64,000 nucleotides of DNA from Candidatus Kapaibacterium sp. (GCA_018883125.1 VEQR01000004.1:5963-69962); one strand, 5' to 3'. Shown: positions 6,422 through 42,122, counted from the first letter of the stretch. Program-made: numbers and translations. The notes: generated from the sequence alone by a model not told the origin.

Positions 6422-7684
6422 ATGAGCATCCTTCACGAGAACCTTACGTCACAAGCAGAAGCCCTACGTGCAAAGCGCGCCACGTTGCTGAAAGAGCGTG
6501 GTGAAACCGTGCTTGGGAGTGTGACCATCGAACAGGTGCTCGGTGGCATGCGCGGTGTACCTGCTTTGGTCTGCGATACGTCAAGCGTATCGGCCGATGA
6601 AGGTCTGCGCATCCGCAACACACCAATCCTTGAGCTTACCGACATCACGCCGGAAGAAACGTTCTGGCTGCTGGTTACGGGTAAGCGCGCCACGGACGAC
6701 GAGCGCAAGGAGCTCAGCGCCATCTTCGCCAAGTACTACGCGGTTCCACAGTACGTTGTGGACACGCTCAAGGCCATGCCAAAGGATTCGCATCCGATGG
6801 CGATGCTCAGCGTAGGTCTTCTGGCGATGGAACGCGAAAGCGAATTCCGTGCTGCCTACGATAAGGGGGCAGGCAAGGATGTCCTGTGGCAATCAATGGT
6901 CAACGATGCCGTACGACTTGTGGGCTCCATCCCGGGTATCGCAGCCGCGATCTATCGTATTCGCTTTGACAAGGGCGATGTGATCGCACCTCTGACAGAT
7001 GATAATGACTTGTCGAACAACTTCGCCCACATGCTCGGCGTAAGTAACGATGCATCGTGGAAGGAACTGATCCGCCTGTATCTGGTGCTTCACTCGGACC
7101 ATGAAGGCGGCAACGTCAGCGCTATGACGTCGTACGTTGTCAGCTCGGCCCTGAGCGATCCGTTCTACAGTGTTTCAGCCGCCATGTGTGGTCTTGCAGG
7201 CCCCCTGCATGGACTTGCAAATCAGGAATGTCTGCGATTCATCATGGACGTGCGCGAGCAGTTTGGTGGCGTCCCAACGGATGAACAGCTGACAGAGTAC
7301 ACATGGAACCGCCTGCGCAACGGCCAGGTCATCCCGGGATATGGTCACGCGGTTCTGCGCGTTACAGACCCGCGATTCACGGCCTTCCACGACTTCGGCG
7401 TCAAGCATGGTCTTACGGACGAGAACGTCCAGATCGTTCACAAGATCTTCCGCCTCGTGCCTGGTATCCTCAAGGAGCACGGCAAGGCCAAGAACCCATG
7501 GCCAAACGTTGATGCAGGTTCCGGTTCGCTCCTTTACGCCTACGGCATGACCGAGTTCGATTTCTACACCGTGATGTTCGGTGTCAGCCGCGCAATCGGC
7601 CTCTGCTCGCAGATGGTCGTCAACCGCATGATGGCTTCTCCGATCGTTCGTCCAAAGTCGCTGACGCTGGACGAGCTGAGCTAA
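6422..7684 (+). CDS. gltA: Citrate synthase (eukaryote-like type)
   Basis: GYGHAVLRVTDPR and SDHEGGNVSA motifs. Start taken at MSILHENL (ATG 6422); the upstream extension was rejected. Confidence 0.9.
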   Translation: MSILHENLTSQAEALRAKRATLLKERGETVLGSVTIEQVLGGMRGVPALVCDTSSVSADEGLRIRNTPILELTDITPEETFWLLVTGKRATDDERKELSAIFAKYYAVPQYVVDTLKAMPKDSHPMAMLSVGLLAMERESEFRAAYDKGAGKDVLWQSMVNDAVRLVGSIPGIAAAIYRIRFDKGDVIAPLTDDNDLSNNFAHMLGVSNDASWKELIRLYLVLHSDHEGGNVSAMTSYVVSSALSDPFYSVSAAMCGLAGPLHGLANQECLRFIMDVREQFGGVPTDEQLTEYTWNRLRNGQVIPGYGHAVLRVTDPRFTAFHDFGVKHGLTDENVQIVHKIFRLVPGILKEHGKAKNPWPNVDAGSGSLLYAYGMTEFDFYTVMFGVSRAIGLCSQMVVNRMMASPIVRPKSLTLDELS

Positions 7685-7686
7685 GC

Positions 7687-7896
7687 GAAGACTGAAGACT
7701 GAAGACTGATGACTGATGACTGATGACTGATGACTGATGACTGAAGACTGAAGACTGATGACTGAAGACTGATGACTGATGACTGATGACTGATGACTGA
7801 TGACTGAAGACTGATGACTGAAGACTGATGACTGAAGACTGATGACTGAAGACTGAAGACTGATGACTGATGACTGATGACTGATGACTGATGACT
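7687..7896 (+). repeat. 30-unit perfect heptamer tandem array with two unit types, GAAGACT (11) and GATGACT (19)
   Basis: Read unit by unit. There are no indels and no substitution other than A/T at unit position 3. It starts 2 nt after the gltA stop codon. Confidence 0.97.
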
Positions 7897-7910
7897 GTCG
7901 TTGTGAATCG

Positions 7911-7980
7911 TAATCAGTAATTAGTCATCAGTAATCAGTCATCAGTCATCAGTAATCAGTAATCAGTAATCCGTAATCGT
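7911..7980 (-). repeat. About 10-unit heptamer array in inverted orientation (TCATCAG / TAATCAG)
   Basis: TCATCAG is the reverse complement phase of GATGACT. A 14-nt spacer separates it from the forward array. Confidence 0.9.
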
Positions 7981-8060: not shown

Positions 8061-8137
8061 TGGTGGACGCTACTAGATTCGAACTAGTGACCTTTACGAT
8101 GTCAACGTAACGCTCTAACCAACTGAGCTAAGCGTCC
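8061..8137 (-). tRNA. tRNA-Val(GAC): tRNA-Val (anticodon GAC), CCA encoded
   Basis: Manual cloverleaf: acceptor GGACGCT/AGCGTCC, D arm GCTC..GAGC, anticodon stem TTACG/CGTAA with loop TTGACAT, T arm ACTAG-TTCGAAT-CTAGT, then ACCA. Confidence 0.9.
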
Positions 8138-10308: not shown

Positions 10309-10372
10309 TTACGGAATTACTGAAGTACTGAGTTACTGAAGTACGGAATTACTGAATTACCGAATTACAGAA
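10309..10372 (+). repeat. 8-unit octamer array, [G/T]TACNGA[A/G]
   Basis: TTACGGAA TTACTGAA GTACTGAG TTACTGAA GTACGGAA TTACTGAA TTACCGAA TTACAGAA, starting at the base after the hppA stop codon. Confidence 0.9.
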
Positions 10373-10374
10373 GG

Positions 10375-10414
10375 ACGGGAGTTGCGAGGTGTTCGCGGCT
10401 CCCGTTTCTTTTTT
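10375..10414 (+). terminator. Rho-independent terminator of hppA
   Basis: Stem ACGGGAGTTGCGA / TCGCGGCTCCCGT (with G-U pairs), followed by TTCTTTTTT. Confidence 0.75.
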
Positions 10415-15053: not shown

Positions 15054-15083
15054 TTGCAGATTTCTTCGATGCCCGTATCTTTG
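15054..15083 (+). promoter_or_regulatory. Bacteroidota-type promoter (TTG-N19-TATCTTTG) for tRNA-Lys
   Basis: TTG at 15054-15056, a 19-nt spacer, then TATCTTTG at 15076-15083, ending 4 nt before the tRNA 5' end. Confidence 0.45.
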
Positions 15084-19540: not shown

Positions 19541-20014
19541 ATGAACATCATTGATCGGCTTAACCTTCTCGAGCACCCTGAAGGGGGCTATTACCGCGAA
19601 TACTATCGATCGTCGATCACCGTGCCTACAGAGAGGGGGCCGCGCTGCGCAGCCACGTCAATCTGGTTTTGTTTGCCGGTAGGTGTTGTGTCGAACTTTC
19701 ATCGGCTATCGAACGATGAGATCTGGTATTGGCACGAGGGCGGACCCGTGGTGGTTCACATCATTCATCCGGATGGACGGTACGAGCATGTTGAGCTTGG
19801 CTCGCCCCCTTTCATGCATGCCGCTGTATTGCCGGCAGGAACATGGTTCGGTGCGGAGTCACTCGAACAAGATGTGCTTGTATCAGCAATGGTAGCACCT
19901 GGCTTTGAGTTTGAAGACTTCGAATTGGCCACGCGAGCTGGGCTTCTGGCTATGTATCCGCAGCATGGAGAGATTATACAGCGATTGACTCGAGAAGAGG
20001 GACAGAGGTACTGA
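19541..20014 (+). CDS. Cupin-fold protein (DUF985-like)
   Basis: LEHPEGGYYREYYRS N-terminal motif and cupin-like core. The last five codons and the stop codon lie in a 16-bp tandem repeat. Confidence 0.65.
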   Translation: MNIIDRLNLLEHPEGGYYREYYRSSITVPTERGPRCAATSIWFCLPVGVVSNFHRLSNDEIWYWHEGGPVVVHIIHPDGRYEHVELGSPPFMHAAVLPAGTWFGAESLEQDVLVSAMVAPGFEFEDFELATRAGLLAMYPQHGEIIQRLTREEGQRY

Positions 20015-20037
20015 GGGACAGAGGTACTGAGGGACGA
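19999..20037 (+). repeat. GGGACAGAGGTACTGA x2 plus a partial copy (octamer pair GGACAGAG / GTACTGAG)
   Basis: Exact 16-mer at 19999-20014 and 20015-20030, partial copy to 20037. The first copy contains the cupin stop codon (20012-20014). Confidence 0.9.
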
Positions 20038-21420: not shown

Positions 21421-21421
21421 A

Positions 21422-21516
21422 GTGACTAGTGACGAGAGATGAGTGACGAGTGACGAGAGACGAGAGACGAGTGACGAGTGACGGAGGTACGGAATGACGG
21501 AATGACGGAATGATGT
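21422..21516. repeat. 9 heptamers (GTGACGA / GAGACGA) followed by 4 octamers (AATGACGG type)
   Basis: Read unit by unit: heptamers 21422-21484, octamers 21485-21516. Confidence 0.85.
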
Positions 21517-21645
21517 TCTCCCGCATAATAGCCCATGGCCTTGGCCATGGGAACGCGATGTTGACGGAATGACGTTCTCCCGCATAATAGCCCATGGCCT
21601 TGGCCATGGGAACGCTGGCCATGGGAACGCTGGCCATGGGAACGT
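21504..21645. repeat. Composite repeat: a 53-bp unit x2 (1 mismatch) plus TGGCCATGGGAACGC x3, each 53-bp unit carrying the palindrome CCCATGGCC-TT-GGCCATGGG
   Basis: 53-bp copies at 21504-21556 and 21563-21615. 15-mers at 21601-21615, 21616-21630 and 21631-21645. Palindromes at 21532-21551 and 21591-21610. Confidence 0.9.
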
Positions 21646-28372: not shown

Positions 28373-28380
28373 TATTTTTG
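28373..28380 (+). promoter_or_regulatory. Candidate -7 box TATTTTTG
   Basis: Matches TAnnTTTG, 26 nt upstream of ATG 28406. Confidence 0.3.
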
Positions 28381-30872: not shown

Positions 30873-30937
30873 ACGGGGATCTGTTCAGGCATGTGAGTGG
30901 TTGACAAAAATGGACAAATCTCCAGTAGCTTTGCCAG

Positions 30938-31537
30938 ATGAATCAGTCCCGTTCGGATGCCATTGAAGGCATTATTCGCGATTCGATCGCCGTCAAAGAG
31001 AGGCTGCTGCACGAACAGACGGAAGCAATTCGGTCAGCCGGAGCAGTTCTTGCCCAATGCGCCAATCTTAATCGGTTGATCATGCTCTGCGGCAACGGTG
31101 GAAGCGCTGCCGATAGTCAGCACATCGCCGCAGAACTGGTCGTGCGCCTTCGCAGCGACGTGAACCGTCGGGCGATCAAAGCCCTAGCTCTAACGACCGA
31201 CAGCAGCGTTCTGACGGCAGGCGGCAATGACTACGGCTTTGACCGTGTCTTCAGCCGTCAGATCGAGGCATTTGGAGACTCGGGTGACGTACTTATCGCC
31301 ATCTCCACAAGCGGCACATCGAAGAACGTTGTCCTCGCCGTGGAGGAAGCTCGTAATCGCGGTGTGCGCACAATCGGTCTCCTCGGTGGAACCGGCGGCG
31401 TCCTGAAAGAGTTATGTGATCATGCGGTTGTGGTCCCATCTTTGGTTACCGCCCGCATTCAGGAGTGCCACATCATGATTGGGCATATCTGGTGCGAGAT
31501 GATTGAGGAAGGAATTACGGAGTTACGGAATTACTGA
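30938..31537 (+). CDS. gmhA: Phosphoheptose isomerase (SIS domain)
   Basis: GNGGSAADSQHIAAEL and AISTSGTSKNV motifs. The last 7-8 codons and the stop codon are encoded by octamer repeats. Confidence 0.8.
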   Translation: MNQSRSDAIEGIIRDSIAVKERLLHEQTEAIRSAGAVLAQCANLNRLIMLCGNGGSAADSQHIAAELVVRLRSDVNRRAIKALALTTDSSVLTAGGNDYGFDRVFSRQIEAFGDSGDVLIAISTSGTSKNVVLAVEEARNRGVRTIGLLGGTGGVLKELCDHAVVVPSLVTARIQECHIMIGHIWCEMIEEGITELRNY

Positions 31538-31616
31538 AGTACGGAATGACGACCATCGTCATTCACGCGAAAGCGGGAATCCATCCTTGATGACTGATGA
31601 CTGATGACAATGACGA
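31515..31616 (+). repeat. Five octamers (TTACGGAG TTACGGAA TTACTGAA GTACGGAA TGACGACC, 31515-31554) and four heptamers (GATGACT type, 31589-31616)
   Basis: Read unit by unit. The gmhA stop TGA (31535-31537) lies inside unit 3. Confidence 0.85.
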
Positions 31617-39055: not shown

Positions 39056-39796
39056 CTATTGTGCGAGATAACCGCCATCGACAGGGAAGTACCCTCCTGT
39101 TACGAAGGATGCCTCCTCTGAGCCAAGGAATGCAACAAGTGCCGCTACCTCGTCAGGAGTGCCGACTCGACCGATTGGATGACGCGCGACGACGTCATGG
39201 GCGACCTGTGGATCTTGCATTACGCCGGCAATCATCGGTGTGTCGATGAATCCGGGACCCACGGCATTGATCCGCACACCCTGCGCCGAATGATCGATCG
39301 CCGCCGACCGAACCAGTCCGACAAGTCCGTGTTTGGCAGCCGTGTACGCCGGTGCTCCGGCAAAGCCGACCATGCCGAGAACGGACGAGATCACGATGAT
39401 CGACCCCTTGCCTTGCTTGAGCATTGCGGGTAGCTGTGCCCGTATGCCGTAGAACACCCCGGAGAGGTTCACGTCGATGATGCGGCGCCACTCCTCCACG
39501 GGGTATGTGGCCGTAGGAGCCCCTTGCCCGCCAATGCCGGCATTGTTCACGGCCACATCAAGCCGACCGAATTCACGAAGTGTTGCCTCCATGCACGCCT
39601 CGTGATGCTCAGGAATCGAGACGTCGCAATGAACATACAGAGCATTGGCTCCCTGCTTCTTCAGTTCTGTCTCAAGCTGCACGCCATGCTCATCGTTGAC
39701 GTCCGCAAGGACCACATTGGCGCCTTGCATTGCATATCGACGAGCAATCGCCGAGCCGATGCCAGAGGAGGCGCCGGTGATTAGAACAACGGACAT
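39056..39796 (-). CDS. Short-chain dehydrogenase/reductase (FabG-like)
   Basis: TGASSGIGSAIA cofactor motif, catalytic YTAAKHG, NNAG. Confidence 0.85.
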   Translation of the reverse strand: MSVVLITGASSGIGSAIARRYAMQGANVVLADVNDEHGVQLETELKKQGANALYVHCDVSIPEHHEACMEATLREFGRLDVAVNNAGIGGQGAPTATYPVEEWRRIIDVNLSGVFYGIRAQLPAMLKQGKGSIIVISSVLGMVGFAGAPAYTAAKHGLVGLVRSAAIDHSAQGVRINAVGPGFIDTPMIAGVMQDPQVAHDVVARHPIGRVGTPDEVAALVAFLGSEEASFVTGGYFPVDGGYLAQ

Positions 39797-39802
39797 AATG
39801 AG

Positions 39803-40290
39803 TTACTGAGTTACTGAATTACAGAGGTACAGAAGTACAGAAGTACTGAGGTACAGAAGTACAGAAGTACAGAAGTACCTAAGTACAGAAGTACTGAGGT
39901 ACAGAAGTACAGAAGTACCTAAGTACAGAAGTACTGAGGTACAGAAGTACCGAAGTACCGAAGTACGGAAGTACTGAGGTACAGAAGTACAGAAGTACAG
40001 AAGTACAGAAGTACAGAAGTACAGAAGTACAGAAGTACAGAAGTACAGAAGTACAGAAGTACTGAAGTACAGAAGTACTGAGGTACAGAAGTACAGAAGT
40101 ACCGAAGTACCGAAGTACAGAAGTACCGAAGTACCGAAGTACCGAGGTACAGAAGTACAGAAGTACAGAAGTACAGAAGTACAGAAGTACAGAAGTACAG
40201 AAGTACAGAAGTACAGAAGTACAGAAGTACAGAAGTACAGAAGTACAGAAGTACTGAGGCACAGAATTACGGAAGTACAGAGACACAGGA
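39803..40290. repeat. 61-unit octamer tandem array, consensus GTACAGAA (37 exact units)
   Basis: Read unit by unit with no indel over 488 bp. Variants: GTACTGAG, GTACCGAA, GTACCTAA, GTACGGAA. Pure GTACAGAA runs of 10 units (39979-40058) and 13 units (40147-40250). A 40-bp higher-order unit is repeated at 39859-39898 and 39899-39938. Confidence 0.97.
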
Positions 40291-40360
40291 AACACGGTGG
40301 TAGCAATGACGTAGGGGCAAGGCGTCGTCTTGCTGATTCGTCTTGCGCACTCGCGGTGCC

Positions 40361-41221
40361 TCAGTGCGATGAATCTCGCTTCGTAAACGGGGCCACCACT
40401 TGATGAAAGAAGCCGTGGGGATAGTGCTCAACATCCTCGAAACCGAGAGTTATGTCGCGTCCCGAGGTGGGCATGTAGGCGGTTCCGAACAGCCAGTCCC
40501 ATACGCTAAGCGTAAGTCCGTAGTTCACGCTCTTAACGCCTTCGGGCAGGTTCTTGGCATGATGCCAGATATGCATCTGTGGCGTGTTGAAGAGATACTT
40601 CAGGGGGCCGATGGGCAGCACAATGTTTGCATGATTCAGATGGCCGACCGCGGTGGCAAAAACGCCCACGGCAAAAAAATCGACAAGGTTGATGCCAAGC
40701 AGCATGAGAGGGATGTATTCCAGCACTCCATAGACGATGTTCTCGGCAAAGTGAAAGCGCAGGTGGGCAGCGAATCCCATCTGTTCGACGCTGTGGTGGA
40801 CCTTATGAAACTCCCAAAGGGTGGACGAGGCATGCAGAAGTCGGTGCACGTTCCACTGAATGAAGTCCCGAGAAACAAAGATTATTAGCAGCAGAGCCCA
40901 CTTCGGGAGCTCGCCCATTACCCCATGAAGTCCGCTAAGAAACGGGAACGCATCAGATACGGCCGTGCGAACCACTGTGCTGATCCCGGAGTAACCGATG
41001 GCACCGAAGATGAACATGTTGAAGAACATGTACCACGTGTCCAGCCAGAAGTCTTTCCGAATCACCGGCTGATTCTTACGCCATGGAACAATTATCTCCA
41101 GAAGCCACACGGCAACAGACAGCCCAACCAGCCACCAGAAGAAGTTGTGCCAGGTGGGCTGTGTGATGGTTGACCCGAGATAGGAGAACTGGGCTGCGTA
41201 GTATGAGACGAGTTGTTCCAT
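40361..41221 (-). CDS. Fatty-acid hydroxylase / sterol desaturase-family membrane di-iron enzyme
   Basis: His boxes HRLLH, HKVHHS and HIWHH, with 4 TM helices. Confidence 0.75.
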   Translation of the reverse strand: MEQLVSYYAAQFSYLGSTITQPTWHNFFWWLVGLSVAVWLLEIIVPWRKNQPVIRKDFWLDTWYMFFNMFIFGAIGYSGISTVVRTAVSDAFPFLSGLHGVMGELPKWALLLIIFVSRDFIQWNVHRLLHASSTLWEFHKVHHSVEQMGFAAHLRFHFAENIVYGVLEYIPLMLLGINLVDFFAVGVFATAVGHLNHANIVLPIGPLKYLFNTPQMHIWHHAKNLPEGVKSVNYGLTLSVWDWLFGTAYMPTSGRDITLGFEDVEHYPHGFFHQVVAPFTKRDSSH

Positions 41222-41246: not shown

Positions 41247-41558
41247 TTAGATTTTCTGCAGTCGGGACCACATATCGGGATGCTTCTCTACAAGCCGAAT
41301 AAGGACGGCGGCCTGCGCATTCGGACGCGAGCGACCCTGCTCCCAGTTCTCAAGCGTCCGAACGTTGGTTCGCATGTAAGCGGCGAAGATCGCCCTCGAG
41401 ACGTTAAGCCGACGTCGCAGTTCTATCAACTCCGATGCGCTAACCTCAGGTGCAGGGTTGTCTGTTACCGCGTGTGTGCGTAAAGTCAACTTTTCTTCAC
41501 GCTGGCCGGCAAGAGCGTCAAAGCCTTCCTTTAATTCCGCTATGAGGGAGCGTTTCAT
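41247..41558 (-). CDS. higA: XRE-type HTH antitoxin (HigA-like)
   Basis: C-terminal HTH ..LNVSRAIFAAYMRTNVRTLENWEQGRSRPNAQAAVLI... 4-bp overlap with the upstream toxin gene. Confidence 0.7.
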   Translation of the reverse strand: MKRSLIAELKEGFDALAGQREEKLTLRTHAVTDNPAPEVSASELIELRRRLNVSRAIFAAYMRTNVRTLENWEQGRSRPNAQAAVLIRLVEKHPDMWSRLQKI

Positions 41559-41893
41559 GAGCGTTGCTTCAGCTCATACTTGAGGAGCCTGTGTAGAAGT
41601 TGAAGATCGCCAGGATGTAGGTTGTCCATTTCATCTTTGTCATATAGGGTGAATAGCCAGAACTGCTTACCTTCTTGCCACCAAAAATAGATGACCCGGA
41701 TGCCACCTCGTCTTCCCTTTCCACGACGAGGGTCACCGAACCGGAGCTTTCGCAGACCCCCGGTCCCTTTGATCAGCGAGCCAGCATCAGGCAGTGCCAA
41801 CAGGACATTTTGAAGTGCCACGAAGGCTTCGTCAGACAGGTAGCTTGCTCTGTGACGCTGAAATGCAGGCAGTTCAACGAACATTGCTCTCAT
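41555..41893 (-). CDS. higB: RelE/HigB-like type II toxin
   Basis: 112 aa with ..GGLRKLRFGDPRRGKGRRGGIRVIYFWWQEGKQFWLFTLYDKDEMDNL.., typical of toxin-first HigB-2/RelE-like modules. Confidence 0.7.
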   Translation of the reverse strand: MRAMFVELPAFQRHRASYLSDEAFVALQNVLLALPDAGSLIKGTGGLRKLRFGDPRRGKGRRGGIRVIYFWWQEGKQFWLFTLYDKDEMDNLHPGDLQLLHRLLKYELKQRS

Positions 41894-42027: not shown

Positions 42028-42103
42028 TGGAGCCAACTGCCGGACTTGAACCGGCGACCTGCTGATTACAAATCAGCTGCTCTACCAGCTGAGCTAAGTT
42101 GGC
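42028..42103 (-). tRNA. tRNA-Thr(TGT): tRNA-Thr (anticodon TGT), CCA encoded
   Basis: Manual cloverleaf: acceptor GCCAACT/AGTTGGC, anticodon stem GCTGA/TCAGC with loop TTTGTAA, T arm GCCGG-TTCAAGT-CCGGC, then TCCA. Confidence 0.9.
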
Positions 42104-42114
42104 CTTTCGAGGCG

Positions 42115-42122
42115 CAAAGATA
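42115..42122 (-). promoter_or_regulatory. Candidate -7 box TATCTTTG for tRNA-Thr
   Basis: Same octamer as upstream of tRNA-Lys. Its G lies 12 nt upstream of the tRNA 5' end. Confidence 0.4.

Follow-up and report, generated by a model that had tools for sequence, protein, structure and literature searches.

The window analysed here is a 64,000-nt stretch of DNA from Candidatus Kapaibacterium sp. (GCA_018883125.1, VEQR01000004.1:5963-69962), and the element in question is an array of 61 consecutive octamers at positions 39803-40290 of its + strand. The array (array F, the largest of six arrays of one unit family in the window) separates two genes of the minus strand. Directly upstream of it, in the sense of these genes, is a member of the fatty-acid hydroxylase/sterol desaturase family (40361-41221, 286 aa, PF04116), whose product shares 100% identity with MBU3678220.1 from a ‘Candidatus Kapabacteria bacterium’ metagenome-assembled genome (MAG). 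Directly downstream is the intact gene of a short-chain dehydrogenase/reductase (SDR; 39056-39796, 246 aa), which matches adh_short_C2 with E = 3.5e-71 and carries the motifs TGASSGIG, NNAG and YTAAK. The order on the sense strand is the hydroxylase stop codon, 70 nt of unique sequence, (TTCTGTAC)n, the hexanucleotide CTCATT and the SDR ATG, which gives a total spacer of 564 bp. The array is probably, if far from certainly, a hyper-expanded long simple-sequence repeat (LSSR) of a lineage-specific 7/8-nt family with the consensus KKACNGAR, which was generated by slippage, probably has no dedicated function and would leave the SDR gene dependent on read-through.

Architecture of the array

The 488 bp of the array consist of 61 phased 8-nt units without a single indel. 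The consensus is GTACAGAA on the + strand and TTCTGTAC on the sense strand of the flanking genes, and the repeat is (GTACAGAA)n in DNA form and (UUCUGUAC)n in RNA form. Thirty-seven units are exactly GTACAGAA, six are GTACTGAG, six are GTACCGAA, two are GTACCTAA and the other 10 occur once each. Positions 3 (A) and 4 (C) of the octamer are invariant across all units, and the variation is centred on position 5 (A in 41 units, T in 9, C in 9 and G in 2) and position 8 (A in 51, G in 10). T at position 5 is paired with G at position 8 in 7 of 9 units (Fisher p = 9e-6), a coupling most simply explained by repeated copying of one variant unit, GTACTGAG, which is also present in two smaller arrays of the window (B and C, described below). 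Two stretches of the + strand are pure GTACAGAA, a run of 10 units (80 bp, 39979-40058) and a run of 13 units (104 bp, 40147-40250), the latter of which also contains the array's longest exact internal repeat, of 100 bp. A 40-bp higher-order block, GTACAGAA GTACAGAA GTACCTAA GTACAGAA GTACTGAG, is present in two tandem copies at 39859-39938 of the same strand. An earlier note on this DNA had described the 61 units without an indel, the 37 exact copies, the variation at positions 5 and 8, the near-constant coupling of T with G, the two pure runs and the doubled block, as well as the location of the array between two genes of the same strand, and our recount agrees on all of these.

Both edges of the array are degenerate. 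At the SDR-proximal edge (39803-39826, + strand) the units are TTACTGAG, TTACTGAA and TTACAGAG, which are like the units of arrays B and E, and at the hydroxylase-proximal edge (40259-40290, + strand) they are GCACAGAA, TTACGGAA, GTACAGAG and ACACAGGA. The mean number of mismatches in a unit is 2.0 for the seven edge units and 0.48 for the 54 interior units. Degenerate edges around a pure interior are the usual signature of an array that was homogenised from within. Tandem Repeats Finder (TRF) reports a period of 8, 58.8 copies, 0% indels and a score of 716, so a chance origin of the array is not an issue. The array has the defining properties of an LSSR, namely a head-to-tail unit of 1-11 nt, a length greater than chance and, for a unit that is not a triplet, a location in non-coding DNA. 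The composition of its sense strand is 44% U, 26% C, 15% G and 15% A, i.e. it is 70% pyrimidine with C > G. Neither an inverted partner array nor a long inverted repeat was found around array F, unlike array A.

The source of the sequence is an 82.8-kb MAG contig from a metagenome assembly, and a repeat that is truly present could have been assembled with a wrong length or order (collapsed, expanded or chimeric). The pure runs of 80 and 104 bp are just under common maximum k-mer and read lengths, as a collapsed run might look. A second assembly of the species for comparison was not found: searches for identical copies of the SDR, hydroxylase and P0001 sequences returned none, and when metagenomes were scanned with the SDR protein, no relative exceeded 53% identity. 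Against such an error, no k-mer of at least 111 nt recurs in the region, and the path through it is unambiguous at large k or with 150-nt reads; with its longest exact internal repeat at 100 bp, the array can be assembled from 150-nt reads or at k >= 101. Moreover, the variant units follow one another in a non-trivial order, which a loop in the assembly graph would not create, syntenic genes stand on both flanks in the expected order and orientation, and five more arrays of the family were assembled in the same contig. We consider an assembly artefact very unlikely.

The junction between the two genes

The unique stretch between the hydroxylase stop codon and the array (40291-40360, minus strand) contains small hairpins, and neither a sense-strand intrinsic terminator nor a TAnnTTTG promoter box. 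The 6-nt gap CTCATT between the array and the SDR start codon (39797-39802, minus strand) is devoid of a Shine-Dalgarno sequence, an absence that is not surprising in this group, given that the organism has promoter boxes of the Bacteroidetes type, TAnnTTTG (see below). On the minus strand, the three SDR-proximal edge units supply three TAA codons spaced 8 nt apart, which are located 6-22 nt before the SDR ATG and close all three frames.

The main unit contains no stop codon in any frame of either strand, and this is why open reading frames (ORFs) of 167 and 138 aa run through the array. The 167-aa ORF (39803-40306, minus strand) begins with TTG, spans the array and ends with a TAA 6 nt before the SDR ATG, and could be taken to encode a hydrophobic peptide, (CTSVLLYF)n. 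However, an 8-nt unit is not a multiple of three, neither of the two ORFs has a Pfam match, the four orthologous loci with spacers of 35-48 bp (described below) have no such ORF, and other members of the repeat family are clearly non-coding or follow stop codons. A coding role of the array is effectively refuted by the non-triplet unit, the missing Pfam match and the absence of the ORF in four relatives, and the earlier note rightly called the 138-167-aa CTSVLLYF ORFs spurious.

The same junction in related Kapabacteria

Related contigs were recovered via homologues of the hydroxylase, and the order photolyase, hypothetical, EamA, (tRNA), hydroxylase, SDR is conserved in them. The spacer between the hydroxylase and SDR genes is 35 bp long in contig L027 (hydroxylase 81% identical to that of the window), 44 bp in L045 (87.5%), 45 bp in L049 (92.7%) and 48 bp in L037 (87.9%), with no array in any of them, and is 564 bp long with 61 units in the window. 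Because these four relatives have spacers of 35-48 bp and no array, the sequences indicate that the array is a lineage-specific expansion in a normally compact junction, with an ancestral spacer of 35-48 bp. At the position equivalent to that of the array, L045 carries CATTACTTCTC, which is a plausible seed for an array of this type.

In a fifth relative, L023 (86.9% identity), the spacer is 175 bp long and contains no octamer array but other small repeats, and a TCAGTAA motif is located 12 nt from the SDR ATG. This spacer (7062-7236) is made up in part of a 24-25 bp direct duplication (CCGGGATGACGGGATTAGT[T/C]AG) and of fragments of the family motif, TTCCGTAA, GGTCAGTCATCAGT and TCAGTAA. The repeats of L023 suggest that the hydroxylase-SDR junction is a recurrent site of repeat birth.

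Two further differences were seen around the junction. In L050 (745-960; Candidatus Kapaibacterium sp. GCA_046092945.1) the SDR gene is mostly missing, and the remaining 200 bp or so, from its start codon onwards, are joined directly to the sequence 3' of the gene. Either the deletion is real, in which case the SDR would be dispensable in that lineage, or it is an assembly artefact. On the other side of the hydroxylase gene of the window, an insertion at 41247-41893, between the tRNA (42031-42103) and the hydroxylase, holds two genes with weak Pfam matches, one for a RelE-like toxin (PF06296) and one for an MqsA/HigA-like antitoxin (PF15731). In L023 and L037, merely 100-odd bp separate the tRNA from the hydroxylase, and a TAGTTTTG promoter box directly precedes the ATG of the latter; this box of the relatives is altered to TAATTTGA in the window.

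Predicted folding and proposed growth of the array

Both strands of the array are predicted to fold into ladders of 4-bp GUAC:GUAC helices with 4-nt loops. The folds are much more stable than those of shuffled sequences (z = -12.5 and -20), and the ensemble is diffuse, with many equivalent registers. Folding that is degenerate in its register is a property that would be expected to stabilise slipped intermediates. From its purity, its higher-order blocks and the self-pairing of GTAC, the array is plausibly highly prone to slippage.

The proposed mechanism starts from a TTACTGA-like seed just upstream of the SDR start codon, from which the array would have grown by replication slippage or unequal exchange. 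The GTAC palindrome found in every unit would let single strands pair out of register and thereby stabilise slipped intermediates, and slippage stabilised in this way would permit the gain or loss of single units as well as of multi-unit blocks. Such growth is supported by the equivalent fold registers, by the purity of the interior next to degenerate edges and by the tandem duplication of the 40-bp block. Arrays of the family would accumulate at the ends of coding sequences (CDSs) wherever a non-triplet repeat is tolerated.

The palindrome in the unit has another conceivable explanation, a GTAC-specific restriction-modification system, which was rejected: outside the arrays, the observed/expected ratio of GTAC is 0.80, like that of other 4-nt palindromes.

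Expression of the SDR gene

The promoters of this Kapabacteria MAG are of the Bacteroidetes type, as shown by TAnnTTTG boxes directly before both tRNA genes (15087 and 42103), 12 nt before a gmhA-like gene and before other genes. These -7 boxes are located at 15076-15083, 42115-42122, 30926-30933 and 28373-28380, and of the 12 matches to the box in the window, 7 are in upstream regions. A scan of the hydroxylase-SDR spacer revealed no TAnnTTTG box, no sigma-70-like site and no sense-strand intrinsic terminator. One rotation of the unit, TACTTCTG, is one mismatch off TAnnTTTG and is not relied on here. In an Rfam scan of the window only three tRNAs reach the gathering score, and the array matches no known structured RNA family.

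The SDR gene would thus be placed behind about 564 nt of untranslated, 70%-pyrimidine RNA. Because it has no recognisable promoter of its own behind this long leader, its expression should rely on read-through from the hydroxylase gene. Long untranslated RNA that is rich in pyrimidines and has more C than G is a good substrate of Rho. Since the leader suits Rho in this respect, we infer that read-through into the SDR gene falls with unit number, and SDR expression should fall or vary with it, e.g. by Rho-dependent polarity or through RNA structure. A copy-number-dependent effect of the array on the SDR is plausible on these sequence grounds. Relaxed selection on the SDR after the expansion was looked for and not seen: the proteins of the window and L037 are 74.8% identical, vs 73.6% for L049 and L037, i.e. 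the SDR has evolved no faster than in the relatives. Because the gene is intact and shows no such acceleration, its sequence gives no sign of silencing by the expansion.

The same leader could also be a selected expression rheostat or contingency locus, in which the repeat forms the 5' leader of the SDR mRNA and the number of units reversibly tunes the SDR. In Haemophilus influenzae, the expression of hmw1A/hmw2A falls as the copy number of (ATCTTTC)n in their 5' untranslated region (UTR) rises (PMC12721329). Copy-number variation, transcription of the repeat, a hairpin cleaved by RNase III and the inverse dose-response were all shown there by experiment (PMC12721329). Similar to this repeat, array F is pyrimidine-rich on its sense strand and is positioned between upstream transcription signals and a start codon, 6 nt from the SDR ATG, and slippage and lower expression with length would be expected of it as well; by analogy, hmw1A (ATCTTTC)n appears to be its best functional counterpart. 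The intact SDR, the three TAA codons that close all frames just before its ATG, and array D, which likewise abuts the start codon of a beta-lactamase-family gene, would also agree with a tuning function. However, hmw1A is an adhesin gene with an experimentally shown switch, whereas the array of the window is known from its sequence and is followed by a gene for a classical, cytoplasmic SDR and not by a surface, restriction-modification or virulence gene. Other arrays flank citrate synthase, H+-pyrophosphatase (H+-PPase), cupin and gmhA genes, among them housekeeping genes (citrate synthase, H+-PPase and gmhA), and are placed mostly at the 3' ends. In addition, the orientation of the arrays tracks the strand of the chromosome and not that of the gene, neither the array nor the sequence upstream of it contains a recognisable promoter, 61 units are far above the reported working range of such switches, and four relatives do with a 35-48 bp spacer and no array. 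A selected rheostat is an unlikely account of the locus.

Six arrays with one unit family

The other five arrays of the family are all smaller. Array A (7690-7978, + strand) consists of (GACTGAT/GACTGAA) x30, begins 5 bp after the citrate synthase stop codon and has an inverted partner, (TCAGTAA/TCAGTCA) x10.6, at 7906-7978. Together with this partner it could form a very long hairpin between the citrate synthase gene and a convergent tRNA (8064-8137). Array B (10309-10380, + strand) has 9 units of the TTACNGAA type, which start 0 bp after the stop codon of the H+-PPase gene and run into an intrinsic terminator. Array C (20000-20031, + strand) is (GGACAGAG GTACTGAG) x2, with the TGA stop of the cupin gene within unit 2, and array E (31515-31554, + strand) is TTACGGAG TTACGGAA TTACTGAA GTACGGAA TGACGACC, with the TGA of the gmhA-like SIS gene within unit 3, so that in both genes the stop and the last codons are supplied by array units. 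Array D (21421-21510, + strand) is (AGTGACG) x8 followed by TGACGGAG GTACGGAA TGACGGAA TGACGGAA and stands 0 bp from the ATG (21420) of the minus-strand beta-lactamase-family gene, an arrangement as in array F.

All units of the six arrays fit KKACNGAR (8-mers) or TKACTGA / KKACGAR (7-mers), a family that is one mismatch away from the published TAACTGA repeats (PMC4679880). The window is rich in such arrays: in its 64 kb, 8 TRF rows are 7/8-nt arrays of at least 4 copies, compared to none in 58.7 kb of the Kapabacteria relatives and none in 299 kb of unrelated metagenome loci, the latter reused as a background from the scan with the SDR protein. Outside the arrays, single copies of the motif are not enriched (8-mer KKACNGAR, 52 observed vs 55 ± 7 expected; 7-mer family motif, 8 observed vs 18 expected). 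At the gmhA stop codon, units of the TTACGGAA type in the window correspond to (GAGTGAC) x3 in L023 and to no array in L027; comparison of these sequences indicates that array sites persist while units and lengths turn over.

Six of six arrays read KKACNGAR on the + strand, irrespective of the strand of the neighbouring gene (two-sided p about 0.03), and this shared orientation is suggestive only. The earlier note had array F opposite to the arrays after hppA, gmhA and the cupin gene. This holds relative to the genes, because those flanking array F are on the minus strand, but not along the chromosome, where all six have the same direction. Nearly everywhere in the window the GC skew is above zero (overall +0.022, with the cumulative skew rising throughout), and by the usual GC-skew rule the + strand is therefore probably the leading strand. 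Each array begins 0-6 bp from the gene on its left, whereas 70-195 bp are kept on its right; the abutting end of the left-hand gene is the stop codon of four + strand genes and the start codon of two minus-strand genes. This placement is far from random. The arrays could sit in transcribed UTRs between a CDS and the nearest constrained signal (terminator or promoter); alternatively, their placement at gene ends could be due to a polar process.

A scan of a one-genome-per-species collection for (GTACAGAA)x3, in which the source genome was not matched and which had no matched control, found 22 loci from many phyla with a maximum of 16 copies. Scans of viral collections gave 0 matches for the octamer vs 1-2 for three controls, counts too small to interpret. 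A MAG of Puia sp. (CBDCCE01, Chitinophagaceae) carries the GTACAGAA/GTACAGGA octamer (GTACAGRA) at no fewer than seven loci (L004, L005, L008-L010, L012 and L014). It has many heptamer arrays too, with 26 TRF rows in 56 kb of loci selected for having arrays, and its AAGCCTA / TTTAGGC pairs show the same inverted-pair design as array A. Nearly all Puia arrays abut stop codons, and their orientation tracks the abutted gene and is mixed along the contig. Because of this, the window genome and the Puia MAG do not follow one simple placement rule.

The arrays could belong to a genome-wide sequence-specific system, in which KKACNGAR arrays would serve as platforms for a DNA- or RNA-binding protein or be the products of a strand-specific process on single-stranded DNA tied to replication; the sequence, strand and position of the units would then be specified and not accidental. 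Such a system would account for one unit family at six loci (a random octamer matches the pattern, in any rotation or strand, with a chance of about 0.8% each, the pattern being fitted to the same arrays), for the common reading on the G-rich (+) strand and for the beginning of every array at 0-6 bp from a CDS end. The TAACTGA repeats of Beggiatoaceae, Cyanobacteria and Bacteroidetes, for which a binding protein was proposed (PMC4679880), differ from the units by one mismatch, and the GTACAGRA octamers in the Puia (Bacteroidota) MAG lie nearly always against stop codons. The KKACNGAR and TAACTGA-type repeats might then be the footprint of a sequence- and strand-specific process that writes or maintains repeats at CDS ends; the agent may be a replication-coupled activity on single-stranded DNA or a dedicated binding protein. 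If true, this process would explain the one family, the one strand and the 0-6 bp distance at all six loci, and the 61-unit array would be its runaway product. On the other hand, no candidate protein is encoded beside any of the arrays, the motif is not enriched as single copies, the orientation in Puia follows the abutted gene and not the chromosome, and the sample is just six arrays in 64 kb. The polar placement itself could arise if arrays erode neutral DNA until they meet a constrained CDS, terminator or promoter. We regard a dedicated system of this kind as quite unlikely.

Several points weigh against the interpretation of array F as a product of slippage with no dedicated function. Plain slippage from random seeds does not predict that all six arrays have the same unit family, the same chromosomal orientation and a polar placement (0-6 vs 70-195 bp), and this hints at a sequence-specific or strand-specific process, or at selection. 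These three shared features are the most interesting unexplained points about the family. Variation of the unit number at the locus is a prediction from the sequence, and the hydroxylase and SDR genes are presumably co-transcribed, as judged only from the compact spacers of the relatives. The intact SDR gene implies that the array evidently does not abolish its expression, and the predicted polarity may be weak or absent. Finally, the two pure runs could be collapsed, and the length of the array is the assembled one, from which the true length of the runs cannot be read.

Relation to known repeats

LSSRs with units of 5-11 nt are, as summarised in PMC4679880 from Mrazek 2007, abundant in scattered lineages and attributed to slippage. 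The array resembles this class, as far as it is described there, in its head-to-tail short unit, its length beyond chance, its intergenic location with a non-triplet unit, its occurrence in scattered lineages and its likely origin by polymerase slippage. According to the same summary, heptamers are the commonly reported class, whereas the window is dominated by octamers. Compared to the reported examples that we found, the 61 copies (488 bp) of array F are longer, and the arrays of the window have in common their unit family, strand and polar position.

The TAACTGA repeats of Beggiatoaceae, Cyanobacteria and some Bacteroidetes reach up to 43 copies in Bacteroidetes (MacGregor 2015, PMC4679880). 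Close relatives of the genomes that bear them have shorter, repeat-free spacers, and their function is unknown (PMC4679880). Similar to these repeats, the arrays of the window are intergenic, mix related units and supply stop codons; the window units TGACTGA, TTACTGA and TTACTGAA are one mismatch away from TAACTGA, and the spacers of the relatives are short and repeat-free. Unlike them, the main unit of array F is an octamer, GTACAGAA, which has no stop codon. The defining unit of the TAACTGA family is absent from the array, the nearest to it being TTACTGA(A/G) at its edge and TGACTGA/TTACTGA in array A. TAACTGA repeats are typically positioned a few nt upstream of a start codon, in forward orientation. 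Array F is separated by 6 nt from the ATG of the SDR but is reversed with respect to that gene, and at four of the six local arrays the abutting gene end is a stop codon.

Genome-specific heptamers have been described in Xanthomonas (GGGAATC) and Nostoc (GGGGA(T/C)T), including a 26-copy array between pecE and pecF, which belong to one operon (PMC4692102). The likeness to the window consists in a genome-specific family of intergenic units near gene ends and in convergent inverted pairs like that of array A. But the units of Xanthomonas and Nostoc form G-quadruplexes and are distributed roughly equally on both strands, whereas the unit of array F contains no G-tract and the six arrays read on one strand. 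The short tandemly repeated repetitive (STRR) heptamers of cyanobacteria are families of tandem 7-nt units scattered through the non-coding DNA of particular lineages, and their function is unresolved. These heptamers of Calothrix/Nostoc (cited in PMC4692102) are similar to the array in being lineage-restricted tandem short units in non-coding DNA and differ in phylum, unit length and unit sequences.

Because its unit differs from TAACTGA and the SDR is not of the contingency-locus type, array F is filed under the general LSSR class alone, i.e. it is an extreme example of a known slippage-prone repeat and not a new element. The earlier note had called an array of this length and purity exceptional, which is true of its degree, with 61 copies compared to reported maxima of 43 for TAACTGA (PMC4679880) and 26 for GGGGATT (PMC4692102) and to 16 in our octamer scan, but not of its class, which had already been described.

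If its length is real, the array is among the longest repeats of a short unit on record between paired bacterial genes, and it occurs in an uncultured lineage in which no such repeat is known to have been described. The locus is a natural test of how non-Shine-Dalgarno, Bacteroidetes-type expression copes with a repetitive leader of about 500 nt, and the six arrays, with their common unit family, strand and placement against CDS ends, are a compact data set on the 35-year-old question of why certain 7/8-nt units spread in certain genomes. For practical purposes, it would serve as a highly discriminating strain marker (a variable-number tandem repeat, VNTR), and the locus is a likely assembly breakpoint for this organism.

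Other repeats were seen in the course of these comparisons. The longest octamer run in the one-genome-per-species collection, 16 perfect copies overlapped by a 516-aa ORF, is found on a high-GC actinobacterial plasmid, NZ_CP192027.1 of Streptosporangium sp. CA-135522 (L001 4402-4528). In the window, palindromes similar to repetitive extragenic palindromes (REP-like) lie near array D at 21503-21644, where CCATGGCCTTGGCCATGG is part of a 59-bp unit repeated x1.9 and is accompanied by a 15-bp unit repeated x2.9. A similar palindrome, CCCGGGCCTTGGCCCGGGG, is present twice in L023 (15400-15500, reverse strand), beside the small array that follows gmhA.

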